Notes under the pieces: model-generated
What the model saw: only the letters and a program-made list of their open reading frames with translations
Database searches by the model: none
Told to the model about the DNA's origin: nothing
Part shown: positions 6,545 through 22,801 of the stretch, piece by piece
Layout: the number at the start of each line of letters is the position of its first letter
Position numbering within the stretch: the first letter of the stretch is position 1
Origin: Candidatus Omnitrophota bacterium
Lineage (GTDB): Bacteria; Omnitrophota; Gorgyraeia; Gorgyraeales; Gorgyraeaceae
Reading direction: 5' to 3'
Assembly (NCBI GenBank): GCA_030649895.1
Contig: JAUSEX010000052.1
Coordinates: 16,988-80,987, forward strand
Length of the DNA stretch: 64,000 bases
Made by a program: the position numbers and the translations under genes

Positions 6545-7313
6545 TAAATTTTTCCGGCACTGTTATTAAATAGGTCTTATTTAATTTGCCTTTATTCACA
6601 ATAAGCCTTTTCCCATTACCTAAATTAACGGCATCCTTGTCTATTGTCTCCAGCCAGGGATGCTTATAGTATTCTGCCAAAAATAAAAACAATCTCTTGA
6701 CTGCGACATGCCTACAAGCGCGCAGTAATTCATTAACTACATTCGGACGTAATGTGGTTAACCCTTCCATAAGCTCTGCGGCAAAGGTAAATGAAAATTC
6801 ATCTTTAACAAATACCAACGCTTCCATTATTGCCATTTCAGGCGATGAAATCTTTAATGGCCAGTCCTTTATAGGACTTTTTATTTCCATAAATCCCACG
6901 TTTTTGGGCACGCCTCTAAATAACTGTTTATGCACAACTCGTAAAGATACATTAAGAGTGACATTCCTAACCCACGAAGGGATTTTTGACAATCCCACAA
7001 GATATATCTGATTTTCTCCCGCTAATCTTAAATAATGAGAAAACCCCTGTAAATTAAGCGCTGTTTCTCCGCTAACATGATAAGCTACCCCCTCTATGTG
7101 TTGCCACGAAGCAACCAAGCCCTGCCAACTCACTTCTGTTGTCGGCCTGCTATACGCTCCTTTACCTACAGATTTAAGCCATCCACCTTTAACATAATTA
7201 TGAGTACGCTGTCTGGAGTATCCTTTATCCTGTAGCCATTTGCTTGGAGCTATGGCACCTTCAGGTAAACATAGATATAATTGGTTTATTTTTTCGTTGT
7301 TTTGTATATTCAT
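6537..7313 (-). CDS. AbiEi-family antitoxin / transcriptional regulator, number 2.
   Basis: N-terminal winged helix ...KWLQDKGYSRQRTHNYVKGGWLKSVGKGAYS (AbiEi_4 pattern L...G.L....RG.Y). Paired immediately upstream of AbiEii. Leaderless-like TATACT 7 nt before the ATG. Confidence 0.75.
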   Translation of the reverse strand: MNIQNNEKINQLYLCLPEGAIAPSKWLQDKGYSRQRTHNYVKGGWLKSVGKGAYSRPTTEVSWQGLVASWQHIEGVAYHVSGETALNLQGFSHYLRLAGENQIYLVGLSKIPSWVRNVTLNVSLRVVHKQLFRGVPKNVGFMEIKSPIKDWPLKISSPEMAIMEALVFVKDEFSFTFAAELMEGLTTLRPNVVNELLRACRHVAVKRLFLFLAEYYKHPWLETIDKDAVNLGNGKRLIVNKGKLNKTYLITVPEKFNV

Positions 7314-7432
7314 ACTTTACAGTATATCATATTTCTAAACTAAAAACAAGCTTATGGTTTAAATTTTATTATTCTTGTATATTGTGGGTTTACTTTTTAA
7401 TATTATTCTAAACATCGTCTCTGTATCTGCCA

Positions 7433-7557
7433 TATCTGTAATATACATCTTACCATCCGTAGCCAGCATTTTTAAACCGTTACATTTTGTAACGGTTTCA
7501 CTACCCTTTCGCTACTATATAAGACACATCTCAAAGGTGTTTTCTTTCAAAAATTTT
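7433..7557. repeat. Composite repeat unit, copy 1: 25-bp perfect palindrome AAACCGTTACATTTTGTAACGGTTT (7474-7498) followed by the conserved 40-nt motif (7518-7557).
   Basis: Near-identical to the unit at 15623-15748. The palindrome also occurs at 11284-11308 with compensatory changes (GTGAC...GTCAC). Confidence 0.8.
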
Positions 7558-7987
7558 AAAATATTTCATTCCTTAAAATCCCGACTACATACCCCACATT
7601 CCTTAATGGATTATCAGTGCGCATTTTGGAGACTTTTTCAACGGCTTTGCGCACATCATTTTCATTGTATTCTTTCATAATCCTTATGAAATTCTCAACC
7701 ACTTTTGGGCTATAGCCTTTATCTATCATGAAGCTAAGCTCTCTGGCCTTCGCGACTTCGTCCTTTCCATAACGCGCCTCTAATCCAAGCCATTTTTTCT
7801 CCATATCTTTTTCTGAATAAAGTATACCCAGAAGATACTCGCTTGGCTCTCTATCCTCATAACCAGCGCCTTTAGCTACTCTGGCTCTTTTTATCTCCAG
7901 AACACCGTATTTTTCAAGCTCTCTCATGCTAGGGGAAATAGTAGTATGATCCACATGAAAATCCTGCGCCAGTAAATTAAGGCTCAC
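7556..7987 (-). CDS. 'Family A' winged-helix / DnaD-like domain protein, copy 1. GTG start; the N-terminus is fused to a remnant of the PLD gene's 5' region.
   Basis: MRELEKYGVLEIKRARVAKGAGYEDREPSEYLLG (wHTH-like) ... IRIMKEYNENDVRKAVEKVSKMRTDNPLRNVGYVVGILRNE (DnaD-domain-like C-terminus). The open frame extends upstream into 7988-8100 without an ATG. Confidence 0.6.
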   Translation of the reverse strand: MSLNLLAQDFHVDHTTISPSMRELEKYGVLEIKRARVAKGAGYEDREPSEYLLGILYSEKDMEKKWLGLEARYGKDEVAKARELSFMIDKGYSPKVVENFIRIMKEYNENDVRKAVEKVSKMRTDNPLRNVGYVVGILRNEIF

Positions 7988-8160
7988 AGACCACCACGGG
8001 CTATCTTTACTAAGAGATTCTTTATAGACATTGATAAAATACGCGAACTTAGCGCTTTGGCTTAGTTTCCTTGACCAGTCATATTCCCAGTAGGCAAAAT
8101 GGAAGGATAAAAAGAAATTTTAGTGAAGAGTGTTTTCAACCTATAAACATCCTATGCTTA
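7988..8160. repeat. Recombination scar. The 5' leader/signal-peptide region of the PLD gene (AATGGAAGGATAAAAAGAAATTTTAGTGAAGAG...) is fused directly to the family A gene. The PLD body has been deleted in this copy.
   Basis: Sequence 8095-8160 matches 12640-12700/12770-12830 and 16670-16740, which flank PLD genes at the other two module copies. Confidence 0.6.
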
Positions 8161-8163
8161 TGA

Positions 8164-8925
8164 TTATCCATTGCCTATTCTTTTCAAGAGCTCATCCGAG
8201 AATTTCTGGATTTCTTCTCTGGTTACCGGCTCACGATAATACAATTCATCCATCTCGTCCCGGAATCTCTCCTGAGATATACGTAAATTTTCGACTATGC
8301 TTTTTTTGTCTAAAGGCCTGAACATTTCTTTCTTTGCCAGCAATGCCAAAGCGTCATCTATATTCAATCCCAATTTTTTCTGTAATATAACCAAATCATA
8401 CGGATCCCTGGGCCTTGCCCTATCGTTAAGCGTGCGTATTTTCTCGGCAAAAATCTCGCTTGTGTCCATAACCGGACAGGAAAGCTTAACCCCGTAATAA
8501 TTCTTGTATTCCATTACTTTTGGCTCAAGCAATACTTTTTGATTAGTGTTTATATCTACCTCGATTGTATCCGGCTGGGCTAATACACCGCGGTATTGCA
8601 CGGAAAACGCTAACCCGAATTTTTTCTCTTCTATATCCTTTAATTTAAATATTTCAAAATCTGAAAATAGACTCTCCACGTCGGATAGCTTTAATTTAGT
8701 CTTCGAAGTAAAATCCAGGTCTTTCGAGAAACGAATCTGGTCCAAATAGCAGTGATAGATGGCTGTCCCGCCTTTAAAGACAAGCGCGTCTTTTAATTCA
8801 GAACCGTAAATAATACTTAAGATTACCGCTAAGAAATAATCCTTTTCAGCATCCTGCAAATTATATTTAAGGCCGCGTTTATTTAAGACCTCTAATCGCG
8901 CCCTATCCAACAAATCTATCTTCAT
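8164..8925 (-). CDS. Nucleotidyltransferase, AbiEii toxin family, number 3.
   Basis: DALVFKGGTAIYHCYLDQIRFSKDLDFTSK motif. Overlaps the upstream AbiEi gene. Confidence 0.8.
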   Translation of the reverse strand: MKIDLLDRARLEVLNKRGLKYNLQDAEKDYFLAVILSIIYGSELKDALVFKGGTAIYHCYLDQIRFSKDLDFTSKTKLKLSDVESLFSDFEIFKLKDIEEKKFGLAFSVQYRGVLAQPDTIEVDINTNQKVLLEPKVMEYKNYYGVKLSCPVMDTSEIFAEKIRTLNDRARPRDPYDLVILQKKLGLNIDDALALLAKKEMFRPLDKKSIVENLRISQERFRDEMDELYYREPVTREEIQKFSDELLKRIGNG

Positions 8926-9676
8926 AATATAACCGCCATTTCGCGTTAAATTTCTTTGAATTAGGCGTAAGTTTACTATAACCTTTGGCTCCTACGGTCT
9001 TGCGCAATTCTTCAGTATCTATTTTTAATATATCTAAAATAAATCCTAATTTTCGTCTGGCCGCCTCAGGAAATTTCCGGGCATAGGTAAACAGCCTCCT
9101 AAAATTTATTCTGTCTTTTGCTTTTTGCAGTTTCTCCAGCAGTAAATCTATGGAATAAGTGTCATTTTTAAAATAGAGATAATCTAGAATCACTTTTTCA
9201 AGCTCCGCGACTTTTACGTAGTAGCCTTCTATGTTTTCAGTCTTAAAGCCAAAATACAGCTTTTTGTTTATCTTCAGATACCGATAGGTGTTTTTTTGAA
9301 ACACGTACTTCTTGGACTTAAGATTGGTTACCGATGATACAGTACGCAACATCTGTTCGAAAAGGCCATAATGATTTAAAGCTGAATCCAGCGAAACATA
9401 AGAATCTTTATTAAAGGCATTCGCTATAATAACAGGCGAAATATTCACAAAGCCGCGCGAGGAGATATCTGAGATAAAATAAAGCCCTCTCCTCAAAGGA
9501 ATGAGCCAGCCGTTTTTTTTGAGCTCATAGACCCGCTTCTTGAGGACAAATTTCGAGTATTTCCTGCCTAATGCCTTATGGATATCGTTGGCAGTTACGA
9601 TCTTACCCGAAGCAACAATAATATCTTCTATATCCACAAGTCGTTTTTCCGTTAAAATAGTATTCTTTGAAACCAC
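8903..9676 (-). CDS. AbiEi-family antitoxin / regulator, number 3 (GTG start).
   Basis: VYELKKNGWLIPLRRGLYFISD is an AbiEi_4 winged-helix signature. AAGGGGG RBS. sigma70-like TTGACA(9730-9735)-N17-TTTAAT(9707-9712) upstream. Confidence 0.7.
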   Translation of the reverse strand: MVSKNTILTEKRLVDIEDIIVASGKIVTANDIHKALGRKYSKFVLKKRVYELKKNGWLIPLRRGLYFISDISSRGFVNISPVIIANAFNKDSYVSLDSALNHYGLFEQMLRTVSSVTNLKSKKYVFQKNTYRYLKINKKLYFGFKTENIEGYYVKVAELEKVILDYLYFKNDTYSIDLLLEKLQKAKDRINFRRLFTYARKFPEAARRKLGFILDILKIDTEELRKTVGAKGYSKLTPNSKKFNAKWRLYYEDRFVG

Positions 9677-9706: not shown

Positions 9707-9791
9707 ATTAAACCATACAAATATACTTTTGTCAAGTAGCTTTCTTGCATATATAAGACACATCTCAAAGGTGTTTTCTTTCAAAAATTTT
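9707..9791 (-). promoter_or_regulatory. Promoter of AbiEi#3 (TTGACA-N17-TTTAAT), with the conserved 40-nt motif (9753-9791) just upstream of the -35 element.
   Basis: Minus strand: ...TTGAAAGAAAACACCTTTGAGATGTGTCTTATATATGCAAGAAAGCTACTTGACAAAAGTATATTTGTATGGTTTAATTC... Confidence 0.6.
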
Positions 9792-9866
9792 AGTTAAATA
9801 TAACTAATTTATGTAACACCTTTATTTGTAATTAATTGCAACTACTACTTAAAAGTCAATAAGCAG

Positions 9867-10703
9867 CTAATTCAAGAGTTTTTTGCTTTGAGTCTCCTTT
9901 AGATAATTTTCATGCGTTAATACTTTTTTACCGCTCTTTCTTTCCAATTCTTTTCTCGCATTGCCTGCGACAGCGCCGCCCTCTTGGGCCGCTTGCTTAT
10001 TCTCGATAAATCCCTGAGCATTTTTATTTATGGTGATTTCTTTAGTGGATGCCTCTCCAAGCATTGAGAAGATTAATTCCAAGTCATTCATATGATCCCG
10101 CAGATTTTGCCGCTTTAACCCTTTAAACTTTTTATACGCGGATGGAGTCAGGCCAAAAATTGCTTTTGATATCTCAGCGGTTAGGATTTCATATTCTTTG
10201 GGTTTCTTTACGTCTCTTTTTTGCCACTGATCAGTTAGCTCTTCACGTATAGCTATGCCGCGTATTCTCTTTTCTATCCAATCATCACTATAGCCTTTTG
10301 CCTTATATAGTGCCCGCGTTCTCTTTGTCGCCAATTCAGGGTCTTCGATTTCCTTAATCCGCTCATAGCCGACTCTTGCCAGCCACCTCTTAAATGGTTC
10401 AGCTTTAGGCGAAGGGACAGATTGAATAATACGGAATATACCTTCGGTGTTGGCGCAATCTGTTTCATACTTTTTACCATCCAATGCTTCCAATTTCAGT
10501 CCGTGACAAAATGTCACGACCTCGCATCCTTCCGCTGTCAATCTTTGTTTGAGCTTTCTCCAATATGAACCTGCATCTAAGCTCTCGGTAAGAACACCGC
10601 ATACATCCACAACCGAAAACCACCATTCATTCTTGTGAATGGTTTTCCTGATCTCTTTTTTCCGAAAAATAGCAATTTTAGTAACAGCTGTCTCTTTTGT
10701 CAT
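9867..10703 (-). CDS. DinD-like DNA-damage-inducible protein with an N-terminal Bro-N/KilA-N-like domain, copy 1.
   Basis: The N-terminus IAIFRKKEIRKTIHKNEWWFSVVDVCGVLT resembles Bro-N. The C-terminal half (LTDQWQKRDV...YKKFKGLKRQNLRDHMNDLELIFSMLGEASTKEITINKNAQGF...GGAVAGNARKELE) aligns with E. coli DinD (KGLKKNQKILDHMGSTELAANLFRATQTEE...GRKVRQTIQELGG). Confidence 0.7.
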   Translation of the reverse strand: MTKETAVTKIAIFRKKEIRKTIHKNEWWFSVVDVCGVLTESLDAGSYWRKLKQRLTAEGCEVVTFCHGLKLEALDGKKYETDCANTEGIFRIIQSVPSPKAEPFKRWLARVGYERIKEIEDPELATKRTRALYKAKGYSDDWIEKRIRGIAIREELTDQWQKRDVKKPKEYEILTAEISKAIFGLTPSAYKKFKGLKRQNLRDHMNDLELIFSMLGEASTKEITINKNAQGFIENKQAAQEGGAVAGNARKELERKSGKKVLTHENYLKETQSKKLLN

Positions 10704-10847: not shown

Positions 10848-11485
10848 TTATCTTAGTAGTTTTTTATCATGGGGTAGCTTTATATAACTGTCTTTAGTTA
10901 TAACCTTTTTGCCTGTCTTCGACTCAATTTCTTTTCTCGCTTTCCCCGCAACATGCCCGCCCTGTCGTGCCACCTTTCGATTTTCCCTGAACGTCTTTGG
11001 TTCTTTTGCATTTGAAATTTCAGCAGTGCTGGCCTCCGCAAGCATATTCAAAACAAGCTCCAAATTCGTCATGTTATCGCGCAAATTTTCCTTTTTAAGT
11101 TCTTTAAACTTTTTATATTGCTTGGTCGTTAGGCCTGCCCAGGCAAATGTAATTTCATCAGTCAAAATAGCAAAGTCACCGGCCTCTTTAACGCCGCGCT
11201 TCTGCCATTCATCAGTTAAAGCCTTACGAAGCTCAATGCTTTTTCTGTAACACGCATCTTGCCATCCGCAGCCAGCATTTTCAAACCGTGACATTTTGTC
11301 ACGGTTTCACTGCCTTCTTTTTTAAGGCGTTCTTTTAGCTTTCTCCAATACGCAAGAGGAGATACGCTATCAGTAAGCACTGATATTATATCCGCTACTA
11401 CAAAAAACCATTTTTCTGTCTTTTCGTCCCAACTACGCCTGATTTTCTTACCTTCGAATAGAGCTATCTGAGATTTTTTCTCCAT
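10848..11485 (-). pseudogene. DinD-like gene, copy 2. It is disrupted: split into two ORFs (11216-11485 N-terminal part, 10848-11294 C-terminal part) by a repeat insertion together with a ~70-aa deletion.
   Basis: N-part MEKKSQIALFEGKKIRRSWDEKTEKWFFVVADIISVLT...TKCHGLKMLAADGK and C-part ...LTDEWQKRGVKEAGDFAILTDEI...YKKFKELKKENLRDNMTNLELVLNMLAEAST both align with DinD copies 1 and 3. The segment between them (CANTEGIFRIIQS...IEKRIRG) is missing and replaced by the palindromic element at 11250-11320. Confidence 0.7.
11250..11320. repeat. Inserted copy of the 25-bp palindrome element (AAACCGTGACATTTTGTCACGGTTT at 11284-11308) with flanking CATCTTGCCATCCGCAGCCAGCATTTTC. It disrupts DinD copy 2.
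   Basis: Matches 7440-7500 and 15640-15700, except for two compensatory substitutions that keep the palindrome perfect. Confidence 0.75.
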
Positions 11486-11596
11486 TTATCCCTCCAAATT
11501 TTCATTACAAAGATTTCTATATTAAACACTTTTATTATACCACGCTTTTCAATTCTTCTCTAAGAAACTGCATCATGCGCCACCTCCTCTCTACCC

Positions 11597-11637
11597 TATA
11601 AGACACATCTGGAGGTAGTTTTCTTTCAACTATTTTT
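11597..11637 (-). promoter_or_regulatory. Conserved 40-nt motif, copy e, upstream of the DinD#2 start.
   Basis: TATAAGACACATCTGGAGGTAGTTTTCTTTCAACTATTTTT. Confidence 0.55.
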
Positions 11638-11686
11638 ACTTTTTTGATTTTTTGTGAAAAAGGCAGGTAAAACCAGATTACAAATA

Positions 11687-12061
11687 TTAATCCCTTGCTT
11701 CTTTCCTTAAAATCCCCACTAAATATCCGATATTCCTTAAAGGATTATCCGGACGCATGGAGGAGACTTTTTTGACTGCATTAGCTACATTTTTCTCACC
11801 ATACTCTCGTATAATCCTTATAAGGTTTTCTACTGCTTTGGGATTATAGCCCCTATCTATCATGAAGCTAAACTCTCTTGCCTTGGCCGCTAAGTCTTTT
11901 CCATAACGCTCTTCCATGCCGCGCCATTTTTCCTCCATGTCTTTTTCTGAATAAAGTATACCCAAAAGATACTCGCTTGGCTCTCTATTCTCATAATCAG
12001 CGCCTTTAGCTATCCTAGTTCTTTTTATCTCCAGGACGCCGTATTTCTCAAGCTCTCTCAT
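11687..12061 (-). CDS. 'Family A' winged-helix / DnaD-like domain protein, copy 2 (124 aa).
   Basis: MRELEKYGVLEIKRTRIAKGADYENREPSEYLL...NPLRNIGYLVGILRKEARD. Paralog of 7556-7987 and 15722-16153. Confidence 0.6.
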   Translation of the reverse strand: MRELEKYGVLEIKRTRIAKGADYENREPSEYLLGILYSEKDMEEKWRGMEERYGKDLAAKAREFSFMIDRGYNPKAVENLIRIIREYGEKNVANAVKKVSSMRPDNPLRNIGYLVGILRKEARD

Positions 12062-12252
12062 GCCAGGGGAATTAAAGCCAATGATTTATCCTTTAAGAAC
12101 CTGGCAGGGCATTTGATCATTACAATCTGCGCTTCATCTATAGATCTCTTATCCACAAAAGGCCGTAACTTAAGAATATTCTTTAATTTTTCCTTAGCAT
12201 ACTCTCTGGATATTATTAAATCCGCATTCTCGCTATTTAACCTGAATGCTGA

Positions 12253-12687
12253 CTATGACCAGTTAGAGCTTCCTGATATTACAATATTTTTATCAATGAC
12301 TATTAATTTATCATGAAGCCTTTTACCAGGCATAATAAATTTAACCGGCACGCCCTCTCTATAAAGCGCTAAAAAGGCAGAATCGTTCTTATCTTCATTA
12401 TAGGGTTTACTCCTATCTAAATAGACCTCTACTTTTACACCTCTAGTATGCGCGTTTACTATATCCTGAACCAGCTTATACGCTTCGCTTTCTGTCTTAT
12501 CCAACTCCATGGATATCTCATACATCGCTATATAAAGAGAGTCCTTTGATTTGGAAAGCGCTTCGTGGGCGGCCTGGAAATATTTATCATCGCTTATGTC
12601 TTTAATATCTACCTGAATCGCGAAACTTTTGATTGGAAATAATAAAAATGGAAGGATGAAAATGAAGCCCACCCAGGTTAAAGCCAT
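12253..12687 (-). pseudogene. Secreted PLD-superfamily (Nuc-like, HKD) nuclease, truncated by a nonsense codon immediately after the HKD motif.
   Basis: Signal peptide MALTWVGFIFILPFLLFPIKSFA|IQ; HKD motif HDKLIVIDKNIVISGSSNWS. The TAG directly after NWS corresponds to TAT (Tyr) in the paralog at 16150-16566, whose frame continues ...YSAFRLNSENADLII... for 60 more codons. Confidence 0.6.
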
Positions 12688-12824
12688 GGGTTCTTGTGGG
12701 CGGAATACTGAGCGGCCTGAACATATTCGCACCCTAAAGGGCGTGGTTTTAGGCCGCGAATGTAGAAATTTTAGGGAAGAGTATTTCAATCTATAAACAT
12801 CCTATCAGGCCTATCCGGCACCCC

Positions 12825-13985
12825 TTATAACACATTGCCTGCCCATAGTTCAGACAAAAAATCTCTCCAAGGTATAATCTGTATTTTACCGCTAACCCTT
12901 TTTTCCTTTTCATTACACACAAGCACAGCTTTTTTTGGAGAATATTCCTCAATAAATGCCTTCAATGATTTCAAATCCCTGCCATCAATCCTGCTCGAAC
13001 CTTTTACTTCTATAGCCACTTCTCCCTTTCCAAGCACAAAATCCACCTCCAGCCCTGATTTGGTCCTCCAAAAATTAATATCAAAATCCGACTCGCTGTA
13101 AGAACGGTAGGCGTTTATCTCCATAAGGATTAAATGTTCGAATGCCTTGCCAAACTCTTCTCCCTTAATATCCTCTAAATGCCGCTTAGTCAATATCCCG
13201 CTGACTCCGACATCGAACAAATAATATTTCGGAGCGCTTATAATAACATTACGGCTTTGCCTTCTTTTAAAAGGCTCCAGCCTTATCGCCAATAACGTAT
13301 CCACCAGTATCTGATAATACTCCCTTACGGTCTTCGCGTTTACCCCGCAGTCCCTGGCAATATTTGAATAATTCGTCAACTCTCCGTGCGAATATCCAAT
13401 AGCGTCAAAAAACCTGGAAAACGCCGGAATATTGCGGACGAGCCCTTCGTTGAAGACCTCTTCCTTTAAATAATCCTGAACATATGCTATTAAAGATTTT
13501 CTGTAATTTTTATCATCCAGATAATGCGAAGGCACCATTCCATGGTTTAATGCTCTCAAGAGGTCTACATTCTTAAGCTCAGCGCTTACGAACGGAAAAA
13601 GCTGGTAACGCCATGCCCTGCCCCCCAGTAAATTAGCATGGCCTCTCTTTAACTTCCTGGCGCTCGAACCGCATAATATAAAACTTAAGCCCTTATTTTC
13701 TATCAGCCAGTGAATCTCATCTAGGATTTGAGGAATTTTTTGAACCTCATCTAATATTATAGGCTTAGTTAGACTTTTTTCTTCTTTCGCGAGCAGTCTT
13801 TCGCGGAATAAGGAAGGATTTTTGGATAGCTCAAAAAATAGATCAGTCTTCAGAAAATCATAATATAGACTGTCAGGAAAATGCTCCTTGAGATAGCTGG
13901 TTTTTCCGGTCTTTCTGGGCCCCCATAAAAACGCGGATTGGCCTTTGGGCAGTTTTATTTTTAAAAGCCTTTTTATGTTTTCCAT
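12825..13985 (-). CDS. AAA+ ATPase (AAA_14-like) with a C-terminal DUF4143 / PD-(D/E)xK-like domain, copy 1.
   Basis: Walker A GPRKTGKTS; Walker B ILDEVQ; CGSSARKL; C-terminal ...EVDFVL...IEVK (D..E.K nuclease-like). Confidence 0.8.
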   Translation of the reverse strand: MENIKRLLKIKLPKGQSAFLWGPRKTGKTSYLKEHFPDSLYYDFLKTDLFFELSKNPSLFRERLLAKEEKSLTKPIILDEVQKIPQILDEIHWLIENKGLSFILCGSSARKLKRGHANLLGGRAWRYQLFPFVSAELKNVDLLRALNHGMVPSHYLDDKNYRKSLIAYVQDYLKEEVFNEGLVRNIPAFSRFFDAIGYSHGELTNYSNIARDCGVNAKTVREYYQILVDTLLAIRLEPFKRRQSRNVIISAPKYYLFDVGVSGILTKRHLEDIKGEEFGKAFEHLILMEINAYRSYSESDFDINFWRTKSGLEVDFVLGKGEVAIEVKGSSRIDGRDLKSLKAFIEEYSPKKAVLVCNEKEKRVSGKIQIIPWRDFLSELWAGNVL

Positions 13986-13996
13986 ATAGAACCTTA

Positions 13997-14050
13997 CTCC
14001 TAATTAGTTCGACTAGTTAGGAGTATATCACACAAACTATAAGCTGTCAA
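13997..14050 (-). promoter_or_regulatory. Promoter of AAA#1: TTGACA(14045-14050)-N17-TATACT(14022-14027), followed by an imperfect palindrome CTCCTAATTAGT-tcg-ACTAGTTAGGAG (13997-14023) that overlaps the RBS.
   Basis: Minus strand: cTTGACAgcttatagtttgtgtgaTATACTcctaactagtcgaactaattaggagtaaggttctatATG. Confidence 0.65.
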
Positions 14051-14082
14051 GCGCCTCCTGATTTTTCACATGATCAAAACTC

Positions 14083-15351
14083 TCATCCCAACAACCACTT
14101 ATAAATAGGCTTAACCATTATAACCTTCCCTTCTAACGCAATCTCTTCCTCGGTATCTTCAGTCAAAATAAGCGCAGTTTTCAACTTAAGTTCATCCATG
14201 GCTTTTATCAGCGCATTGAGCTCTCTCGATCTCGTTTTTTCGTTATCTAAATTATCCGCAACCTGAATAAGCAATAGATCATTTTTGCCAGACTTGACCA
14301 AGAAATCAACTTCCAGATTATTTGTGGTCTTATAATAATAAATCTCTTGGAACTTGCGCCTAAGCTCAAGGAATACCAAGTTTTCTAAAAACTTTCCCTT
14401 ATTCTTGGAAAATTGGAATGCGACCGCTTCTGCCAAACCATTGTCGATACAGTAAATCTTCTTAAAGGAGACAAACTGCTGTTTGAGAGAATAAGAAAAC
14501 CTGCTGATGAGGAATATCAAGTAGCTGTTTTCCAAGAAATCCGCGTAGCTCTTGATGGTATTCATGCTGCCTACTCCAAGAACTTTTTTCAGATTATTAT
14601 AAGAGAATGTCCCTCCGAGATTACTCAAAAGATACAGCCCAAGCTCCCTCAATGGTTTAACCTGCTTGATACCATATCTTGCCACGATGTCCCGGTAAAG
14701 AATGTCTTCATATACCCGCTTCAAAAGGGTTGTATCTTGATACTTCAAATACTCGGGCATGCCTCCATGCTTGAGATATTCAGCAAAATGCTTCTTGATA
14801 GCAGCTCTAACTGAGGTCAAAGACAGGCTGTCCTTGGATAACTGGAAACCCTTGAAAGAGAGAAATTCCATAAAAGAGAACGGGAACAATTCAATGTTAA
14901 CGTTTCTGCCTGTCAGTTTCGCGCCAAGCTCCTTGCTAAGCAATGAGGCATTCGAACCTGTGATAAAAAATTTGCATCCCTTACCTTGCATCCGACGCAC
15001 AAACACTTCCCATTGGGGAACGTTCTGAACCTCATCGAAAAAGAAAACCTTTTTATCTCCATACAACTCCAGAAACACCTCGTAAAGATGATTGAAATCC
15101 TCAACATTGAAGTCCACAAGGCGTTCATCTTCAAAATTAAGATAATAAACACCTTTCTTGTAAAGATTACTGATAATCTGATTGAGCAATGTAGACTTGC
15201 CAGAACGGCGCACTCCTGAAACAACTACCGCATGGGGTAAAGTTGCATGCCGTGAAGCAACACTCAATGCTGCCCTTGGAATACCAATATCTATATCCTG
15301 ACGATCTTTTTCTTGTTCAAGAACGATTTCTTTTAATAATGACTTATGCAT
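14083..15351 (-). CDS. AAA+ ATPase (AAA_14-like) with a C-terminal DUF4143 / PD-(D/E)xK-like domain, copy 2.
   Basis: Walker A GVRRSGKST; Walker B FFDEVQ; ITGSNASLL; C-terminal ...EVDFLV...IQV. Confidence 0.8.
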   Translation of the reverse strand: MHKSLLKEIVLEQEKDRQDIDIGIPRAALSVASRHATLPHAVVVSGVRRSGKSTLLNQIISNLYKKGVYYLNFEDERLVDFNVEDFNHLYEVFLELYGDKKVFFFDEVQNVPQWEVFVRRMQGKGCKFFITGSNASLLSKELGAKLTGRNVNIELFPFSFMEFLSFKGFQLSKDSLSLTSVRAAIKKHFAEYLKHGGMPEYLKYQDTTLLKRVYEDILYRDIVARYGIKQVKPLRELGLYLLSNLGGTFSYNNLKKVLGVGSMNTIKSYADFLENSYLIFLISRFSYSLKQQFVSFKKIYCIDNGLAEAVAFQFSKNKGKFLENLVFLELRRKFQEIYYYKTTNNLEVDFLVKSGKNDLLLIQVADNLDNEKTRSRELNALIKAMDELKLKTALILTEDTEEEIALEGKVIMVKPIYKWLLG

Positions 15352-15366
15352 CCTGTCTCCTTATGT

Positions 15367-15416
15367 TCTCACTGTTAATGAGAGTATATCATATATAGTT
15401 CTCATTGTCAATGAGA
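15367..15416 (-). promoter_or_regulatory. Promoter of AAA#2: TTGACA(15406-15411)-N17-TATACT(15383-15388), flanked by two 17-bp palindromic operators TCTCATTGTCAATGAGA (15400-15416, containing the -35) and TCTCACTGTTAATGAGA (15367-15383, at the transcription start).
   Basis: Minus strand: tctcaTTGACAatgagaactatatatgaTATACTctcattaacagtgagaacatAAGGAGAcaggATG. Confidence 0.7.
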
Positions 15417-15622
15417 ATAAGGATCTAAGTTCTTCAAAAATTCTGCAGCCTCTCTCATGAAATCCTCTATTAAGACCTACTGTATTGCTTTCAGCAATTC
15501 CAGATCGTTTAACATCCGATTCAGGCATCTGCACAGAAAGGGTGGTGGCAATTTGCCTCCACCCTTTAGCCAACTACGAATCCCTTTCTATATTATCACT
15601 CAATTCTCTATTAACAATAGCC

Positions 15623-15748
15623 ATATCTGTAATATGCATCTTGCCATCCGCAGCCAGCATTTTCAAACCGTTACATTTTGTAACGGTTTCACTACCCTCT
15701 CGCTACTATATAAGACACATCTCAAAGGTGTTTTCTTTCAAAAATTTT
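15623..15748. repeat. Composite repeat unit, copy 2: 25-bp palindrome (15665-15689) plus the conserved 40-nt motif (15709-15748).
   Basis: About 95% identical to 7433-7557. Confidence 0.8.
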
Positions 15749-16153
15749 AAAAATAAATAAACCGCGCAGGTGATTCATTAGTCTTTTGCTTCTTTCTTCA
15801 AAATCCCCACTAAATATCCGGATATTCCTTAAAGGATTATCCGGACGCATGGAGGAGACTTTTTCAACGGCTTTGCGCACGTCATTTTCATTGTATTCTT
15901 TCATAATCCTTATGAAATTCTCAACCACCTTTGGGCTATAGCCTTTGTCTATCATAAAGCTGAATTCCCGGGCTTTGGCTACCGTGTCCTTACCGTAAAG
16001 CTTTTCCATGCCAAGCCATTTTTTCTCCATATCTTTTTCTGAATAAAGTATACCCAGAAGATACTCGCTTGGCTCTCTATTCTCATGACCAACGCCTTTG
16101 GCTATCCTAGCTCTTTTTATCTCCAGGACGCCATATTTTTCAAGCTCTCTCAT
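15722..16153 (-). CDS. 'Family A' winged-helix / DnaD-like protein, copy 3. The C-terminus is altered by a +1 frameshift (extra G in ATCCGGATATT), so it reads through into the repeat unit.
   Basis: Identical to the other copies up to RPDNPLRNI, then diverges (RIFSGDFEERSKRL...) instead of GYLVGILRKE. The DNA still encodes the ancestral ending in the -1 frame. Confidence 0.55.
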   Translation of the reverse strand: MRELEKYGVLEIKRARIAKGVGHENREPSEYLLGILYSEKDMEKKWLGMEKLYGKDTVAKAREFSFMIDKGYSPKVVENFIRIMKEYNENDVRKAVEKVSSMRPDNPLRNIRIFSGDFEERSKRLMNHLRGLFIFKIFERKHL

Positions 16154-16566
16154 GCCAGGGAAATTGGAGCCAATGATTTATCCTTTAAGAACCTGGCAGG
16201 GCATTTTATCGTTACAATCTGCGCTTCATCTATAGATCTCTTATCCACAAAAGGCCTAAGCCTTAGGATATTCTTTAATTTTTCCTTGGCATACTCTCTG
16301 GATATTATTAAATCAGCATTCTCGCTATTTAACCTGAATGCTGAATATGACCAGTTAGAGCTTCCTGATATTACAATAAATTTAACCGGCACGCCCTCTC
16401 TATAAAGCGCTAAAAAAGCTGAATCGTTCTTATCTTCATTATAGGGTTTACTCCTATCCAAATAGACCTCTATATTTACGCCTCTAGTATGCGCATCTAT
16501 TATATCCTGAACCAGCTTATACGCTTCGCTTTCAGTTTTATCCAGCTCCATAGATATCTCATACAT
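16150..16566 (-). pseudogene. PLD/Nuc-like nuclease paralog lacking the ATG and signal-peptide start region and carrying a 48-nt in-frame deletion that removes the catalytic HKD His-Lys segment.
   Basis: ...VKFIVISGSSNWSYSAFRLNSENADLIISREYAKEKL... The segment MPGKRLHDKLIVIDKN present at 12290-12337 is absent; the deletion is flanked by an ACAATA direct repeat. The upstream frame has no ATG and hits TAG. Confidence 0.6.
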
Positions 16567-16723
16567 CGCTATATAAATAGAGTCCTTTGATTTGGAAAGC
16601 GCTTCGTGGGCGGCTTGGAAATATTTGTCATCGCTTATATCTTGGATATCTACTTGGACTGCGAAACTTTTGATTGGAAATAATAAAAATGGAAGGATAA
16701 AAAAAATTTTAGGGAAAAGTATT

Positions 16724-18667
16724 TCAATCTATAAATTCCCTATGCCAGAGTTCCAGAAATAGAAGGCTCCAAATTCTGGCACCGTTGTTGGCTTTGCAGG
16801 CCATATGATCATCCAGAAGTTTCTTTACGGTCTCTTTTTTAAAATAACTTCTCTTTATGGCTTTATCGCTCATGAGGATATCATGCGAATAACCTTTTAG
16901 TTCATTGCGGAACCAAGAGTCTAAAGGCACGCCAAAACCCATTTTGCTTCTGGAAAGTATTTCTTTGGGCAATGCCTTGGATAATGCTTTCTTTAATATA
17001 TATTTTAATTTTGTGCCTTTTATTTTCATGCTACTCGGCATGCTGGCGCAGAATTCCATCATTTTATGGTCTAGAAACGGCGAACGGCCTTCCAAGGAAT
17101 TGGCCATTGTAGCAATATCCATTTTTACAAGCAGATCATCCAATAGATTAGTTTTTATATCAGCGCACATTACCTTATCCACCACATCTTCAGAGCCGCA
17201 TTCATTAAACGCTTTATCTAAATAATTAAATGAATTCCTGCCGGATATTTCTTTATTAAATTCATCAGTAAACAGGTTATTCTTTTCGTGATCATTAAAT
17301 ATAGCCGTCCAATTATAATGTCTTTCCCTGTATGGTTTAGGCAATTCCACCAGAAATCTTCTAATCCTAGCTTTAGAATCCTTAACCCCGAGAGATTCAG
17401 GTATCTTCCCTGTAATCAATTTTATAATCTTTTCCTTAAATGGAGCTGGTATTTTATTGATTAATTCCGCGTATCTCGTGGCCATAAACCTCTCGTATCC
17501 TCCAAAACACTCATCTCCCCCATCTCCATTTAGAGCCACTGTGACTTCCTGTCTGGTCATTTTAGCTACATAATAACTCGGAAGCGCTGAAGAATCAGCG
17601 TATGGTTCATTGTAATGCCATACAAGTTTTGGCAAAAGATCTATAGCGTCTGGTTTAACAATATATTCATGATGTTCTGTTTTAAACCGTTCAGCGATAA
17701 TTTTAGCGTATTTTAATTCGCTATACTCTTTATTATCAAAACCTATGGAAAATGTTTTTACAGGCTTTGAACTTAGTTTACTCATCATATATACTACAGC
17801 ACTCGAATCTATACCCCCGCTTAAAAACGCTCCGAGCGGAACATCGCTTATAAGCCGTATCTTTGTGCACTCCTCCAGCATATCCATTGTCCTGTCGCAA
17901 TATTCTTTCTCGGATAATTTTAGTTTCTTAGAAAAATCAAGCTTCCAGTATTTTTCTAATCTTATATTGCCTTTTTCATAGATCATAAAATGAGCAGGCG
18001 GAAGTTTCATAATGCCTTTAAACATAGTTTCAGGCGTAGGCGTATATCCGTAACTTAGGTAATCTGTAATGGCAGGCCTGTTGACCTCTTTAGAAATATC
18101 GGGATCTTGAAGAATGGCCTTGATCTCAGAAGCAAAGGTCAATGTTTGGTTCTTATATGTATAATAAAGCGGCTTTTTACCTATCCTATCCCGCGCCATA
18201 AAAAGCCTTTCTTTTTTATTGTCCCATATAGCAAAAGCAAAAGGCCCTCTTAAATCCTTAAGGCACTCCACGCCTTTTTCTTCATACAGATGTAAAATTA
18301 CCTCTGTATCAGTATGCGACTTAAAAATATGGCCTTTTTTTACAAGCTCGTCTTTTAATTCTATAAAATTATAAATTTCACCGTTCAGAACTATCCAAAT
18401 AGACCCATCTTCGTTACTCATTGGCTGATGGCCTGCGGGCGATAAATCAATAATAGCGAGCCTCCTATGCCCCAAACCAACGTTAGCAATATTGTTCGAG
18501 CGAGGCAAAATATACTTCTCGACTTCGCTCGAAGAATATTTTGCCGAGTCGAGAACCTTTATCCCCTCATTATCCGGCCCTCTATGCGTAAGAACCCCGC
18601 ACATCTTTCTGATGAGCTCTTCCGTCACATTCCCATTCGCACTAATTTTCCCGCATATCCCGCACAT
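16724..18667 (-). CDS. asnB: Asparagine synthetase B-like glutamine amidotransferase, copy 1, carrying an in-frame palindromic-element insertion near the N-terminus.
   Basis: N-terminal MCGICG... (Cys2 Ntn-hydrolase nucleophile), LGHRRLAIIDL, and a synthetase domain SGGIDSS. An extra ~24-aa segment DSAKYSSSEVEKYILPRSNNIAN lies between HRGPDNEG and LGHRR relative to the paralog at 46419-48314, and is encoded by 18488-18557. Confidence 0.9.
   Translation of the reverse strand: MCGICGKISANGNVTEELIRKMCGVLTHRGPDNEGIKVLDSAKYSSSEVEKYILPRSNNIANVGLGHRRLAIIDLSPAGHQPMSNEDGSIWIVLNGEIYNFIELKDELVKKGHIFKSHTDTEVILHLYEEKGVECLKDLRGPFAFAIWDNKKERLFMARDRIGKKPLYYTYKNQTLTFASEIKAILQDPDISKEVNRPAITDYLSYGYTPTPETMFKGIMKLPPAHFMIYEKGNIRLEKYWKLDFSKKLKLSEKEYCDRTMDMLEECTKIRLISDVPLGAFLSGGIDSSAVVYMMSKLSSKPVKTFSIGFDNKEYSELKYAKIIAERFKTEHHEYIVKPDAIDLLPKLVWHYNEPYADSSALPSYYVAKMTRQEVTVALNGDGGDECFGGYERFMATRYAELINKIPAPFKEKIIKLITGKIPESLGVKDSKARIRRFLVELPKPYRERHYNWTAIFNDHEKNNLFTDEFNKEISGRNSFNYLDKAFNECGSEDVVDKVMCADIKTNLLDDLLVKMDIATMANSLEGRSPFLDHKMMEFCASMPSSMKIKGTKLKYILKKALSKALPKEILSRSKMGFGVPLDSWFRNELKGYSHDILMSDKAIKRSYFKKETVKKLLDDHMACKANNGARIWSLLFLELWHREFID
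18488..18557. repeat. Nested palindromic element, copy F (permuted compact form), in frame inside asnB.
   Basis: AATATT GTTCGAGCG(18494-18502) aggcaaaatat A CTTCTCGAC(18515-18523) ttc GCTCGAAGAATATTTTGCC gag TCGAGAACC. Confidence 0.8.
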
Positions 18668-18750: not shown

Positions 18751-19890
18751 TTAATGTTTACAAATATTCTCAAGGTCCGCTAGATTTATAAACTTAATTG
18801 TAAAATCACCATATCTATGACTATAGGAATGGCTCATATTATGAGACACTACATATACTTGCGCTTTATCATAATGCCTTAAAAACACTTTAGCATTTGC
18901 CGGATCAAAATCTTTATCCCGCCATTTACATTCTATCGCGATAAGAGGCTGTCCCTTTTTATTGATCACGAAATCTATCTCGTGCCCCTGCTTATCTCTC
19001 CAATAACCGATGTCTCTAGCTTGCCGATGGGCAAATATCTCATTTAAAACAAAATGCTCCCACAGATAACCCATGTCTTCATTTCTAAGTTCATGCCAGC
19101 CGCGGTAATAACAAACAAACCCTGTATCAAAGCCATAGACTTTCGGAGCGGATATAATCTCATTTTGCCTTTTGGAACTAAAAGGACGAATAACATGCGC
19201 AGTAAAAGTAGCTTCAAGCACTTTCAGATAATTGGAGATAGTAGTCCGACTAGCTTCACATGGCGATGCAAAGCTATTGGCCTCAAATATACCGCCGCTT
19301 TGAGCCATAATAAGCTCAAAGAACTTTTGAAACGAATATCTCCTTTCAAGCCTGAATAACTCCTGGATGTCTTTCGCCCAAAAGGTATCTATCCAATCTT
19401 GAAAATTCCGCTCCGGGTATCGAGCGGTCATAAAGAAAGGCGGTAATCCGCCATAGAGAAACCTGTGTTTCAAATCAGTATTACCAAAAGACTCCGCATC
19501 TAATAGCGTCATGGGGGTAAGCCACAACTCCCGCTTTCTGTCTGTCAATGTATCCTTAAATTTCGCCGAAGCGCTAAGAGTAGACGAGCCAGTAGCAATG
19601 ATTTGTATGTCAGGATAATGATCAGCGGCTATTTTCAGTATTTCCGATGGGTTTGATAACCTGTGAATTTCATCCAACGCAATCCTGCGCCCGCGTAAAT
19701 TTTCTAAAAATAACTCCGGATCTTCCATCGCGCGCCTTATCCGAGGAAGCTCACAGTCAAAATAATCAATACCATCAAAGCTTTTGCACAGAAATGTCTT
19801 ACCTGAGCGACTTACACCCGTCAGCCAGATGATAGACTTTTCTTTAAACAGCCTTTCTATAACATTTTTCCAAAATGGCCTATTTTTCAT
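18751..19890 (-). CDS. AAA+ ATPase (AAA_14-like) with a C-terminal DUF4143 / PD-(D/E)xK-like domain, copy 3.
   Basis: Walker A GVSRSGKTF; Walker B ALDEIH; ATGSSTLSA; C-terminal ...EIDFVI...IAIECK. Confidence 0.8.
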   Translation of the reverse strand: MKNRPFWKNVIERLFKEKSIIWLTGVSRSGKTFLCKSFDGIDYFDCELPRIRRAMEDPELFLENLRGRRIALDEIHRLSNPSEILKIAADHYPDIQIIATGSSTLSASAKFKDTLTDRKRELWLTPMTLLDAESFGNTDLKHRFLYGGLPPFFMTARYPERNFQDWIDTFWAKDIQELFRLERRYSFQKFFELIMAQSGGIFEANSFASPCEASRTTISNYLKVLEATFTAHVIRPFSSKRQNEIISAPKVYGFDTGFVCYYRGWHELRNEDMGYLWEHFVLNEIFAHRQARDIGYWRDKQGHEIDFVINKKGQPLIAIECKWRDKDFDPANAKVFLRHYDKAQVYVVSHNMSHSYSHRYGDFTIKFINLADLENICKH

Positions 19891-20078
19891 AATTAAAGCA
19901 TATCATAAAGTTTAACTATAAGCAATACTAAACTTCTATAGTTATGCCAATATTACTCAGCCTCCTATGCCCCAGGCCCATATCTCCTTTTACATACACT
20001 CCCTTTATTTACAACATTATATCAGTACTATTTTATATTCCTAGTATCTTTTTGAACTTAGAAGTTGCATTTCTTTCC

Positions 20079-20221
20079 GATAGTGTGTCCAGCTTAATTC
20101 GTGACGCAGCGCGTCACGATTCGAATACATCACATAGAAATGCCTTATATTTTAGAACCATAAGGCTCGTAACTTATTATAAGGTAAAATGTTACAGCTC
20201 AGTAAGACGTCCCCGATGCTA
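20079..20221. repeat. 143-bp repeat, copy 1 (orphan). It is a duplicated 5' region, N-terminal coding segment plus promoter-like leader, of the YhcG-like nuclease gene.
   Basis: About 93% identical to 25119-25261. Its reverse complement encodes MMYSNRDALRHELSWTHY..., the N-terminus of the gene at 24445-25173. Contains the imperfect palindrome TCGTGACGCagcGCGTCACGA. Confidence 0.75.
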
Positions 20222-20276
20222 TCTCTTAAAGGCTTCGTGGATGGTGGATTTATTTACAACTCAACATAAGATTGCG

Positions 20277-21608
20277 TTACAGATTCCCTGCTTCACGAAC
20301 CAATCTTTTCATCTGCTCTGCCATATACAACGGCAGCGTTAACACTTTATCATGCAAAGATAGCTTCTCCTGCGAAAAGCGCACACCAAACAATGATTTC
20401 TTTTCTTCAATAAACAGTTTTAGTGATTTAAGCGTGCCGGTTTTTCCTGCCTTGACCTCCACCGGCAATATCAGAGAATCTACCGCCACAACATAATCAA
20501 CTTCAGCTGAGCTGCTTTTTTTATCACGAGCCCAGAAAAATAAGCCGCACTTTAAATAACTGTCAAAATAGGCCCTCAGCTCCTGGCCAATGAGCTGTTC
20601 TGTTACAGCGCCAGCATTAATCAGAAAAAAATTATTCGTTAATGTAAGTTCGGCCTGCAGGCCGCAGGCATTCTGCATTAGGCCTACATCAAGGAAGTTT
20701 AATTTGAATTTCATTTCATTAGCTTGCGCTCCCAAAGGAAGCCCTGAAGCGGCAGTAGCGTATATGGGATAGACGATACCTGCTAATTTCAAAAGGTTAA
20801 GCGCCTGTTTGATATCCCTAGATTTACTATGAGGATCGACATTTGAATACTTGATACGATTACCAACAAGCCGCGGAGCTTCATCCAATACCTTTTGCAA
20901 ATATTTGAGTTCGGAAGATTTTGCGTATTTCCCAAAATCATTCCGATACGCTTGCAGCAAAGAATTTTGAATTCGCTGACAATTTAAAAAGTTTCTATTA
21001 TCAAGGTGCTCTTTAACCACAGCCGGCATCCCTCCCACAATAAGATATATCCGCAACAAATCCATCAGCTTCTGATGTACCGCATCATCAAATACGCTGT
21101 TCAATCGTATTTCCCGCAGATGATCCCGCAACAATTCATTCCCGGATGCCGTCAAAAACTCCCCAAAAGACAAAGGCTCAAGATATATAAACTGGATTCT
21201 CCCCACCGGCATTTTAAAATCTGAACTGTTAAGCGCGAATTCCATTAATGAACCTGCCCCAATAACGGCAAGCCGATCATACTTTTCCTTGAAATACCGC
21301 AAGGCCATTATCGCGTTAGGGCATTCTTGTATCTCATCAAGAAAGAGCAATGTTTTCTCTGCTTCTATGTTTTCGCCCATAAGAAGCTGCAACTTATTAA
21401 TAATCTCGATAGGATCAAGCGTAGTAAAACATTGTTTGAGTTCAGGCCTAAATTCAAAATTAACAATAACTATATTTTTAAATGCTCTTTTTCCAAACTC
21501 TTCCACAATGTAACTTTTACCTACTTGCCGCGCTCCTCGCAACAATAATGGCAGCCTGTCTTTGCATTCTTTCCAGTTAAATAAATCTCTTTCCAAGTCT
21601 CTTTTCAT
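20277..21608 (-). CDS. AAA+ ATPase (AAA_14-like) with a C-terminal DUF4143 / PD-(D/E)xK-like domain, copy 4.
   Basis: Walker A GARQVGKSY; Walker B FLDEIQ; IGAGSLMEF; C-terminal ...EVDYVV...VEVKAGK. Confidence 0.8.
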   Translation of the reverse strand: MKRDLERDLFNWKECKDRLPLLLRGARQVGKSYIVEEFGKRAFKNIVIVNFEFRPELKQCFTTLDPIEIINKLQLLMGENIEAEKTLLFLDEIQECPNAIMALRYFKEKYDRLAVIGAGSLMEFALNSSDFKMPVGRIQFIYLEPLSFGEFLTASGNELLRDHLREIRLNSVFDDAVHQKLMDLLRIYLIVGGMPAVVKEHLDNRNFLNCQRIQNSLLQAYRNDFGKYAKSSELKYLQKVLDEAPRLVGNRIKYSNVDPHSKSRDIKQALNLLKLAGIVYPIYATAASGLPLGAQANEMKFKLNFLDVGLMQNACGLQAELTLTNNFFLINAGAVTEQLIGQELRAYFDSYLKCGLFFWARDKKSSSAEVDYVVAVDSLILPVEVKAGKTGTLKSLKLFIEEKKSLFGVRFSQEKLSLHDKVLTLPLYMAEQMKRLVREAGNL

Positions 21609-22794: not shown

Positions 22795-22801
22795 AGTCCT
22801 T

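Follow-up and report, generated by a model that had tools for sequence, protein, structure and literature searches.

Two AAA_14-DUF4143 genes in a toxin-antitoxin island of an Omnitrophota bacterium are probably independent, self-regulated single-gene cassettes

The stretch analysed here (the window) comprises 64,000 nucleotides of contig JAUSEX010000052.1 from a Candidatus Omnitrophota bacterium, and our subject is its segment 12825-15416, which carries two adjacent genes on the minus strand, AAA#2 (14083-15351, 422 residues) and AAA#1 (12825-13985, 386 residues). Their coordinates in the list of open reading frames of the window are those given by the initial annotation, which had described them as a tandem pair of diverged genes coding for an AAA+ ATPase joined to a DUF4143 domain. 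The second pair that it had reported was found at 18751-21608, where AAA#4 (20277-21608, 443 residues) and AAA#3 (18751-19890, 379 residues) also lie on the minus strand. Profile searches bore out the domain assignment: AAA_14 (64.9-126.7 bits for a cut-off of 27) and DUF4143 (86-122 bits for a cut-off of 28.1) both score above the Pfam gathering values in all four proteins, with E-values of 7e-37 and 1.5e-27, respectively, for AAA#2. The Walker A (GxxxxGK[ST]) and Walker B (DE) motifs are equally sound, G46, G51, K52, D106 and E107 being invariant in 98 sequences. Moreover, the PDC-S01 hidden Markov models of PADLOC match all four proteins over their full length (E-values of 2e-47 to 1.3e-146, and 2.5e-116 for AAA#2), with best sub-models that differ: PDLC04787 for AAA#2, PDLC04790 and PDLC04789 for AAA#1, and PDLC04788 for AAA#4. 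The family is COG1373, the PADLOC candidate PDC-S01, and the genes are ordinary members of it; the term "uncharacterised" first applied to them is true of their function, but the family itself had already been catalogued (PMC12988326; PMC3424549). Instead of the 25-30% identity first given for AAA#1 and AAA#2 we measured 22.5% by BLASTP and 25.7% by global alignment, and the four proteins are pairwise 17-27% identical and therefore no recent duplicates.

The two promoters read exactly TTGACA-N17-TATACT, as first proposed, and each has the TG of an extended -10 element. That of AAA#2 (15383-15411, minus strand) has its -35 TTGACA at 15411-15406 and, after a 17-nucleotide spacer, TGaTATACT with the -10 hexamer at 15388-15383; the upstream region runs tctcaTTGACAatgaga-…-TATACTctcattaacagtgaga-…-AAGGAG-ATG on the minus strand. 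That of AAA#1 (14022-14050, minus strand) has TTGACA at 14050-14045 and, again after 17 nucleotides, TGaTATACT with the -10 at 14027-14022, the region reading TTGACA-17-TATACTCCTAACTAGTcgaACTAATTAGGAG-…-ATG. This exact arrangement occurs three times in the 64 kb, each time before a gene of the surrounding island (the third precedes an AbiEi gene), and at up to one mismatch it was found 5 times for 0.31 expected. A generic promoter scan was uninformative in bulk (45 found for 40 expected), and the three 11/12 matches alone stood out from it. No terminator was found between AAA#2 and AAA#1. The AAA#2 promoter is kept in relatives located in unrelated contexts, and TTGAC and TATA(C/T)T are kept in 64 aligned relatives of AAA#1, with a spacer that varies.

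Two sites lie over the AAA#2 promoter. O1 (TCTCATTGACAATGAGA, 15400-15416), whose 8+1+8 palindrome is perfect, includes the -35 hexamer; O2 (TCTCATTAACAGTGAGA, 15367-15383), 33 nucleotides from it, begins on the final base of the -10 and covers the predicted transcription start. Both had been described as 17-bp palindromes at the -35 and the transcription start, which stands for O1, whereas O2 matches at 6 of the 8 positions of each arm. Their motif is found nowhere else in the window (0.15 expected). We surveyed the 120 nucleotides upstream of the gene at 44 non-redundant AAA#2-relative loci (35-93% protein identity). Strict calling of 7-N3-7 palindromes missed many diverged operators, so the core motif CATT-N3-AATG was counted instead, at up to one mismatch and against 3358 control windows taken from the same loci. 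At least one site is present in 41 of the 44, as against 6.8% of the control windows, and at least two in 30, as against 0.24%.

The sites can be followed across domains and in relatives as distant as about 39-45% protein identity; the type of promoter changes over this range. Indeed, in sigma-70-type promoters they are spaced by 33 nucleotides, with O1 on the -35 and O2 at -10/+1; in DPANN archaea the spacing is 23 nucleotides and the sites precede a TTTATAAAT-type TATA box; and at the Bacteroidales loci they precede a TAnnTTTG box, with a spacing of 23 nucleotides in two and of about 32 in another. The ATT-N3-AAT core is constant, and the outer arms vary symmetrically in both half-sites and in both operators (TCTCATT…AATGAGA, TTTCATT…AATGAAA, GTTCATT…AATGAAC, TGCTATT…AATAGCA and TTGTATT…AATACAA). 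The N3 of the bacterial O1 is GAC, which produces TTGACA, and this constraint is gone in archaea.

As the gene alone is common to all these loci, the winged helix of the encoded protein would be the simplest binder, and we propose that in AAA#2 it is the operator-binding element. This predicted winged helix-turn-helix spans residues ~228-302 (14446-14670, minus strand), with a recognition helix GSMNTIKSY…; its assignment follows from the pattern of secondary structure in the model described below (helices 231-243, 251-258 and 263-275, strands 279-284 and 297-301). The residues of the recognition helix appear to shift where the operators shift, which is suggestive: the start of the helix, GS-x-N-T-[IV]-K-S-Y, becomes N(T/S)(A/V)I(S/A)F in the archaeal group, and its Asn is lost at two Bacteroidales loci where the operator core is TATT instead of CATT.

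Upstream of AAA#1 the arrangement is different. The inverted repeat CTCCTAACTAGT-cga-ACTAATTAGGAG (13997-14023) extends from the -10 element to the Shine-Dalgarno GGAG; its arms (14023-14012 and 14008-13997) match at 11 of 12 positions and, as the initial annotation had it, cover the ribosome-binding site. Taken by itself, a 12-mer arm occurs in the window no less often than chance would predict, and the repeat is significant because it is conserved in relatives, not because its arms are rare. Indeed, the block CTCC-N4-TAGT-N3-ACTA-N4-GGAG is kept in the 64 aligned upstream regions of AAA#1 relatives, pairing within the repeat holds in 82% of cells, as against 31-51% when the partner arm is slid, compensatory T:A, G:C and A:T variants occur at position 5, and many relatives have a third half-site in the promoter spacer. 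Folding of the full repeat as RNA gives -14.1 kcal/mol (z = -3.1), with the GGAG paired and hidden; the transcript that begins at the predicted start, which does not contain the left arm, gives -3.8 kcal/mol (z = 0.1). With the predicted start downstream of the left arm, the hairpin would form in read-through transcripts alone. The element may therefore serve as an operator, may insulate the gene from external transcription, or may do both.

The other members of the family have repeats of their own. The TATACT -10 of the AAA#4 promoter (21653-21648) is flanked by two repeats on the minus strand, CTTGTATTATAGCCA (21675-21661) and CTTGTATATTAGCCA (21642-21628), 33 nucleotides apart; these 15-nucleotide repeats (CTTGTATWWTAGCCA, 21628-21675) have the geometry of O1 and O2, but are direct and not palindromic. 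The AAA#3 promoter is covered by interleaved inverted heptamers (AACTATA/TATAGTT and AAGTTTA/TAAACTT, 19943-19906), an arrangement that is conserved at an orthologous locus (L009). Its -10, TATGCT at 19902-19897 (TGaTATGCT, 19905-19897), is separated by only 6 nucleotides from the downstream ATG at 19890, so that the mRNA may be leaderless. Members of other subfamilies in the retrieved loci likewise have upstream palindromes or direct repeats of their own. Over the family as a whole, inverted-repeat arms of at least 10 matches are present in 38% of upstream regions and in 11% of other intergenic upstream regions (p = 1.5e-14), in samples that are not phylogenetically independent.

The idea of a tandem diverged pair as a conserved unit did not survive the comparison of neighbourhoods. 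We examined 54 genome loci with AAA#2 relatives, 80 metagenome loci with AAA#1 relatives and 9 further contexts. Close relatives are numerous (more than 100 cluster representatives at 80-96% identity for AAA#2, as many at 74-97% for AAA#1); the best come from Omnitrophota metagenome-assembled genomes (MAGs), and the source names also include Bacteroidota, Wallbacteria, Actinomycetota, Armatimonadota and Auribacterota; where the contigs are short, binning errors are possible. At 70-96% identity the relatives of both genes are mostly solo, in unrelated neighbourhoods; those of AAA#2 at 80-91% identity stand alone in four unrelated contexts, and on long contigs relatives sit inside glycan clusters, beside truB-ribF, before pgk-tpi-secG, beside uvrB or among toxin-antitoxin (TA) genes. 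A second family gene lies within the flank of about 6 kb in about a dozen of the 54 AAA#2-relative loci, and is directly adjacent on the same strand in about 3; among the 80 AAA#1-relative loci, 69 are solo and 11 have a second family gene, directly adjacent in 5.

The orthologues of AAA#2 and AAA#1 are not found together at any of these loci or contexts, with the sole exception of L001, which is the sequence of the window itself. Upstream of the AAA#1 copies at 95-96% identity (L069, L070) the DNA is different and lacks AAA#2, and at L009 the genes before an 89%-identical AAA#1 are an AAA#3 orthologue and one from another subfamily. Arrays of two or three family genes do recur (L009, L107, L108, L019, L025, L047), and look like independent cassettes accumulating in islands and not like a conserved pair. 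The DNA that the loci have in common begins at the -35 in the case of AAA#1 and, in that of AAA#2, a few bases before O1; for both genes it runs to the stop codon, and the flanks are unrelated. No neighbour is conserved on either side in the relatives, and hence no cognate antitoxin or regulator gene of the kind expected in a type II/IV TA module. We hold with high confidence that the cassettes are independent. An integron or an insertion sequence was considered and rejected, as neither terminal repeats nor a recombinase go with the cassette. In one Omnitrophota MAG (L007/L020), an AAA#2-like cassette has on both sides, at ~5800-5990 and 7290-7370, directly repeated copies of a 42-nucleotide perfect palindrome, AATTCTGGGGACATGTACATTTTGTACGTGTCCCCAGAATTA, which resembles a repetitive extragenic palindromic (REP) or attC-like element and was seen in this genome only.

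We modelled AAA#2 with AlphaFold2 from a 98-sequence alignment (predicted local distance difference test, pLDDT, 93.8). The model consists of an AAA+ core with a helical lid, a winged helix and a C-terminal αβββαβ domain. The nearest whole-chain Foldseek matches are Orc1/Cdc6-DNA complexes, followed by signal transduction ATPases with numerous domains (STAND NTPases), DnaA and RFC/clamp loaders, the top entries being 2qby_A, 2v1u_A, Sr35, Avs5 and Avs4. The template modelling (TM) scores are low over the whole chain, 0.25-0.42, because the domains are oriented differently; the alignment with Orc1/Cdc6 has 372 columns for a chain of 366 residues, that is, the full length of that protein. A sequence search of the PDB with AAA#2 gave no match, NCBIfam gave no meaningful match, and the nSTAND models of Pfam gave only weak, sub-threshold ones. 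The structural likeness to STAND proteins is confined to the NTPase, lid and winged-helix part: the model has no C-terminal repeat sensor of the STAND type, and ends instead in a 110-residue nuclease domain. Modelled alone, this domain (14086-14418, minus strand) again gave αβββαβ (pLDDT 91.4; helix 7-22, strands 25-30, 36-43 and 47-53, helix 60-77, strand 81-86, in domain numbering), and Foldseek placed McrC first (E = 7.5e-5, TM 0.62-0.67), then DdmD, BamHI, NucS, Card1, Kpn2I and TnsA. The combination of an ATPase with a restriction-endonuclease-like domain, claimed at the outset, is thus borne out at the level of the fold, and we place high confidence in the predicted PD-(D/E)xK fold as described.

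The active sites are another matter. The initial annotation had given both proteins a C-terminal EVDF…(I/L)xVK motif. This is correct for AAA#1, whose canonical site reads E…EVDF…IEVK and keeps its E and D invariant among 20 close relatives, but AAA#2 reads EVDF…IQVA. AAA#3 (EIDF…IECK) and AAA#4 (EVDY…VEVK), like AAA#1, keep the canonical helix-E…D…ExK. The AAA#2 site is made up of E323, E347-x-D349 and Q363-V-A365, with no Lys. We counted its residues in 138 representatives of the subfamily, at 36-54% identity, and in 20 close relatives. In the subfamily E323 is present in 138/138, E347 in 132/138, D349 in 137/138 and Q363 in 131/138, and R376 and E377 are nearly invariant; position 365, where the Lys would be expected, is C, T, S or A in 134/138, and Lys is not among its common residues. 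By this pattern of conservation the site E…ExD…QxΦ is a conserved alternative, possibly still able to cleave, and not the product of random decay.

Taken together, we consider it probable that 12825-15416 holds two independent, self-regulated, single-gene AAA_14-DUF4143 cassettes within a TA/defence island. Each would be complete in itself, with a strong sigma-70 promoter, repeated or palindromic sites that are specific to its subfamily and lie over this promoter, and one gene. From the comparative evidence, a dimer or oligomer of the protein would bind its own twin operators through the winged helix and keep expression low; in the case of AAA#2 it would occupy two sites separated by three helical turns, O1 on the -35 and O2 on the transcription start. 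As the fold suggests, a trigger together with ATP binding or hydrolysis would then alter the oligomeric state. In AAA#1, AAA#3 and AAA#4, which have an intact E…D…ExK, the C-terminal domain would cut nucleic acid, and in the AAA#2 subfamily the Lys-less site would either support a variant cleavage mechanism or act as a binder or sensor only. Since no two of the four paralogues have the same operator sequence, several copies could coexist without regulatory cross-talk. We hold negative autoregulation by the encoded protein with moderate confidence. An anti-phage or anti-mobile-element role is plausible, and our confidence in it is low to moderate.

Several observations weigh against this reading. 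In the AAA#1 repeat, two-sided changes (33 cells as against 21.9 in shuffles) are in modest excess, the central four pairs are often unpaired (in 24-32 of the 64 relatives), and G·T combinations, which are also compatible with an RNA hairpin, are common. The covariation of recognition helix and operator is seen in a handful of lineages and has one exception (L065). AAA#2 is devoid of two of the three canonical catalytic residues. The sets of loci come from pattern-seeded scans and are phylogenetically clustered. Finally, the one PDC-S01 representative that was tried in E. coli B did not belong to the four candidates with protective effect on T4, T5 or T7 infection (bioRxiv 10.1101/2024.09.26.614923).

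Could the genes instead work in pairs, AAA#2 with AAA#1 and AAA#4 with AAA#3, as two-component modules (a hetero-oligomeric ATPase-nuclease, for instance) repressed by a neighbouring AbiEi or XRE protein? Two tandem pairs within 9 kb and the recurring arrays of two or three family genes would invite this view, and the degenerate motif of AAA#2 beside the canonical one of AAA#1 would suit a heteromer of an active and an inactive subunit. However, no partner is conserved, most of the 54 loci and 69 of the 80 being solo; the two orthologues occur together only in the window and in L001, from the same organism; AAA#1 at 95-96% identity does without AAA#2 upstream, and its orthologue at L009 follows other subfamilies; the two genes have different sub-models, and each has its own promoter and distinct operators. 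A repressor encoded by a neighbour (AbiEi, XRE or the "family A" protein of the initial annotation) is itself unlikely, because the operators travel with the gene to genomes and domains without those neighbours. We regard such modules as very improbable. Less remote, but still unlikely in our opinion, is that the inverted repeats act as RNA: the AAA#1 hairpin would hide the Shine-Dalgarno sequence in read-through transcripts, so that those from its own promoter alone would be translated. Tn10/IS10 is insulated from external transcription in a similar way. The fold of the full repeat onto the GGAG, which the predicted-start transcript does not make, fits this view, as do the extent of pairing, the frequent G·U-compatible combinations and the lack of a detected terminator between the two genes. 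It fails for AAA#2, however, whose O1, being on the -35, is not transcribed, and whose O2 would give a weak hairpin (-5.6 kcal/mol, z = -0.85) that does not reach the ribosome-binding site; and for AAA#1 itself the often unpaired centre of the repeat, and the third half-site in the untranscribed spacer of many relatives, suit half-sites for a protein better. The two roles are not mutually exclusive.

Another possibility is that these proteins have nothing to do with defence, and are DNA-transaction factors of a selfish or housekeeping kind, such as site-specific DNA-binding ATPases resembling Orc/Cdc6, for which the palindromes are the functional target, persisting as mobile, self-limiting elements. 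Orc1/Cdc6 on origin DNA is indeed the best whole-chain structural match, the boundaries of the cassette are sharp, and relatives at 75-90% identity are found across phyla, inserted between housekeeping genes (pgk-tpi, uvrB). To this can be added the lack of reported protection by the representative tried in E. coli B and a pattern-seeded scan of IMG/VR with AAA#2 that found no close relative, and so no sign of a phage-borne gene. Yet the sites stand exactly on the -35 and the transcription start, in helical phasing, which is the geometry of repression and not of an origin; four copies lie within 9 kb, inside an island rich in AbiE and MazF genes; PADLOC lists the family as a candidate for phage defence, in a set drawn from genes embedded in known defence systems (bioRxiv 10.1101/2024.01.29.577857); and no terminal repeat or recombinase accompanies the cassette. 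We judge this explanation quite unlikely, and an origin-like function was rejected as the principal account on the coincidence of the sites with the -35 and the transcription start.

The preferred reading, that of autoregulated single-gene cassettes, can be set beside known systems. The window proteins have the architecture of PDC-S01/COG1373 (PF13173 + PF13635), in a single gene, and this family is abundant in Bacteria and Archaea. With McrBC they share the association of an AAA+ motor with a PD-(D/E)xK nuclease, and the C-terminal domain of AAA#2 matches McrC chains best. However, McrBC is made up of an AAA+ GTPase, McrB, and a nuclease, McrC, whereas the window proteins are one polypeptide; furthermore, the AAA+ module of AAA#2 resembles the Orc1/Cdc6 and STAND types and not McrB, a winged helix stands in place of the modified-base reader, and no homology was found at the sequence level. 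The predicted order of AAA#2, namely AAA+ core, helical lid and winged helix, is that of Orc1/Cdc6 and of STAND proteins (Avs, and those like the nucleotide-binding leucine-rich repeat, NLR, proteins). The Orc1/Cdc6 winged helix binds specific DNA repeats beside its own gene. Unlike in STAND proteins, the C-terminal module of AAA#2 has a nuclease fold and is not a sensor repeat array; unlike those of Orc1/Cdc6, its sites are on a promoter and not at a replication origin. Autoregulated TA and AbiE modules offer a further parallel, in that a strong promoter lies under inverted repeats, as at the AbiEi gene of the island, and AbiEi binds inverted repeats in its own promoter. Here, in contrast, there is no separate antitoxin or regulator gene, and the predicted DNA-binding domain is inside the effector protein.

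The island itself, of TA and abortive-infection genes, spans about 2-25 kb of the window, which was annotated up to about 26 kb. It contains five AbiEii genes (2259-9676 and 21748-23449), a density that is unusual, mostly beside an AbiEi- or helix-turn-helix-type gene, together with MazF-like, Bro-N and asparagine synthase genes and PLD-like fragments. A glycosyltransferase gene at 952-2262 borders it and suggests that the setting is a polysaccharide biosynthesis cluster. The base composition is flat across the island and gives no compositional sign of recent foreign origin; in the window, Rfam at gathering thresholds and a tRNA scan gave no match, and therefore no known RNA element or tRNA integration site accounts for the repeats. 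The AbiEi-like (DUF6088) gene mentioned above has its TTGACA-N17-TATACT promoter at 23457-23429, under a perfect 34-nucleotide palindrome, TATGTCGCAAAAAGTAT/ATACTTTTTGCGACATA (23417-23450), which is probably an operator for AbiEi autoregulation; this also implies that the true start of the gene would be an internal ATG (MTQS…) and not 23449. A papain-like peptidase C1 gene lies at 3240-4040, and another one directly downstream of an AAA#2 relative at locus L002.

The block of AAA#2 and AAA#1 is flanked by the two copies of a duplicated segment (11595-12805 and 15707-16743, 80-92% identity), one on each side, and because of this duplication it looks as if the block had been inserted or shuffled through recombination between flanking repeats. 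The segment carries a PLD-like gene or fragment, a gene of unknown family coding for 124 or 143 residues and Bro-N remnants, and a remnant of the 3' end of an asparagine synthase gene lies at 12766-12805 (compare 16703-16743). Two intact Bro-N genes (9867-10703 and 23518-24351) have ends that are ~95% identical; a third copy, at 10848-11485, is split by a frameshift, and a short remnant (15420-15700) lies immediately upstream of the AAA#2 promoter. An intergenic element of ~54 nucleotides, which reads TTGAAAGAAA-short hairpin-GTGTCTTATATA on the minus strand, is present four times between cassettes of the island (9750-9803, 11595-11648, 15707-15760 and 21707-21760), and also in the island of the related metagenomic contig L009 (upstream of 1783 and at ~5800-5840). 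A shared promoter and a hotspot for recombination are two possible roles for it. Another element, of 45 nucleotides, occurs twice (23482-23526 and 24405-24449), holds the 34-nucleotide palindrome AGCAGTAGCCCAGGTTTAAACCTGGGCTACTGCT and brackets the full-length Bro-N gene at 23518-24351; it may act as a terminator or mark the boundary of a cassette.

What was known of the family can be stated briefly. DUF4143/COG1373 was listed as a PD-(D/E)XK family in 2012 (PMC3424549). The PDCs are 145 untested candidates obtained by "guilt by embedding" (bioRxiv 10.1101/2024.01.29.577857), among which PDC-S01, described as an ATPase fused to PD-(D/E)xK, is reported to be the fourth most common defence item across prokaryotes (PMC12988326). 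In the searchable literature, whose coverage is incomplete, we found neither a functional study of DUF4143, COG1373 or PDC-S01 nor a report of conserved twin operators or of the Lys-less site of the subfamily. PDC-S01/COG1373, with about 40,000 reported loci, is counted as defence in tens of thousands of genomes, with no demonstrated function. Our analysis removes the misleading idea of a paired module for this family, and supplies handles on it: defined 17-bp operators, a predicted recognition helix and the contrast between a canonical (AAA#1) and a Lys-less (AAA#2) site. The most useful outcome is the conserved, co-varying operators embedded in the promoters.

In a wider proposal, which we put forward only tentatively, PDC-S01 proteins would be sequence-specific DNA-binding AAA+ switches that repress themselves through twin operators, the operators and the winged helix having diversified together to give private circuits. 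If so, such circuits would explain why many diverged copies pile up side by side, and also why the operators are retained when the gene passes between Bacteria and Archaea and a new core promoter forms around them. As a bolder extension, the same DNA recognition may be used in the effector mechanism, for telling self from foreign DNA, and the Lys-less AAA#2 clade may be a non-cleaving derivative that serves as a regulator or sensor. If autoregulation is confirmed, tests of the family in heterologous hosts would have to allow for it, and the AAA#2 sites would be an example of a cis-regulatory site kept across the divide between bacterial and archaeal promoters.

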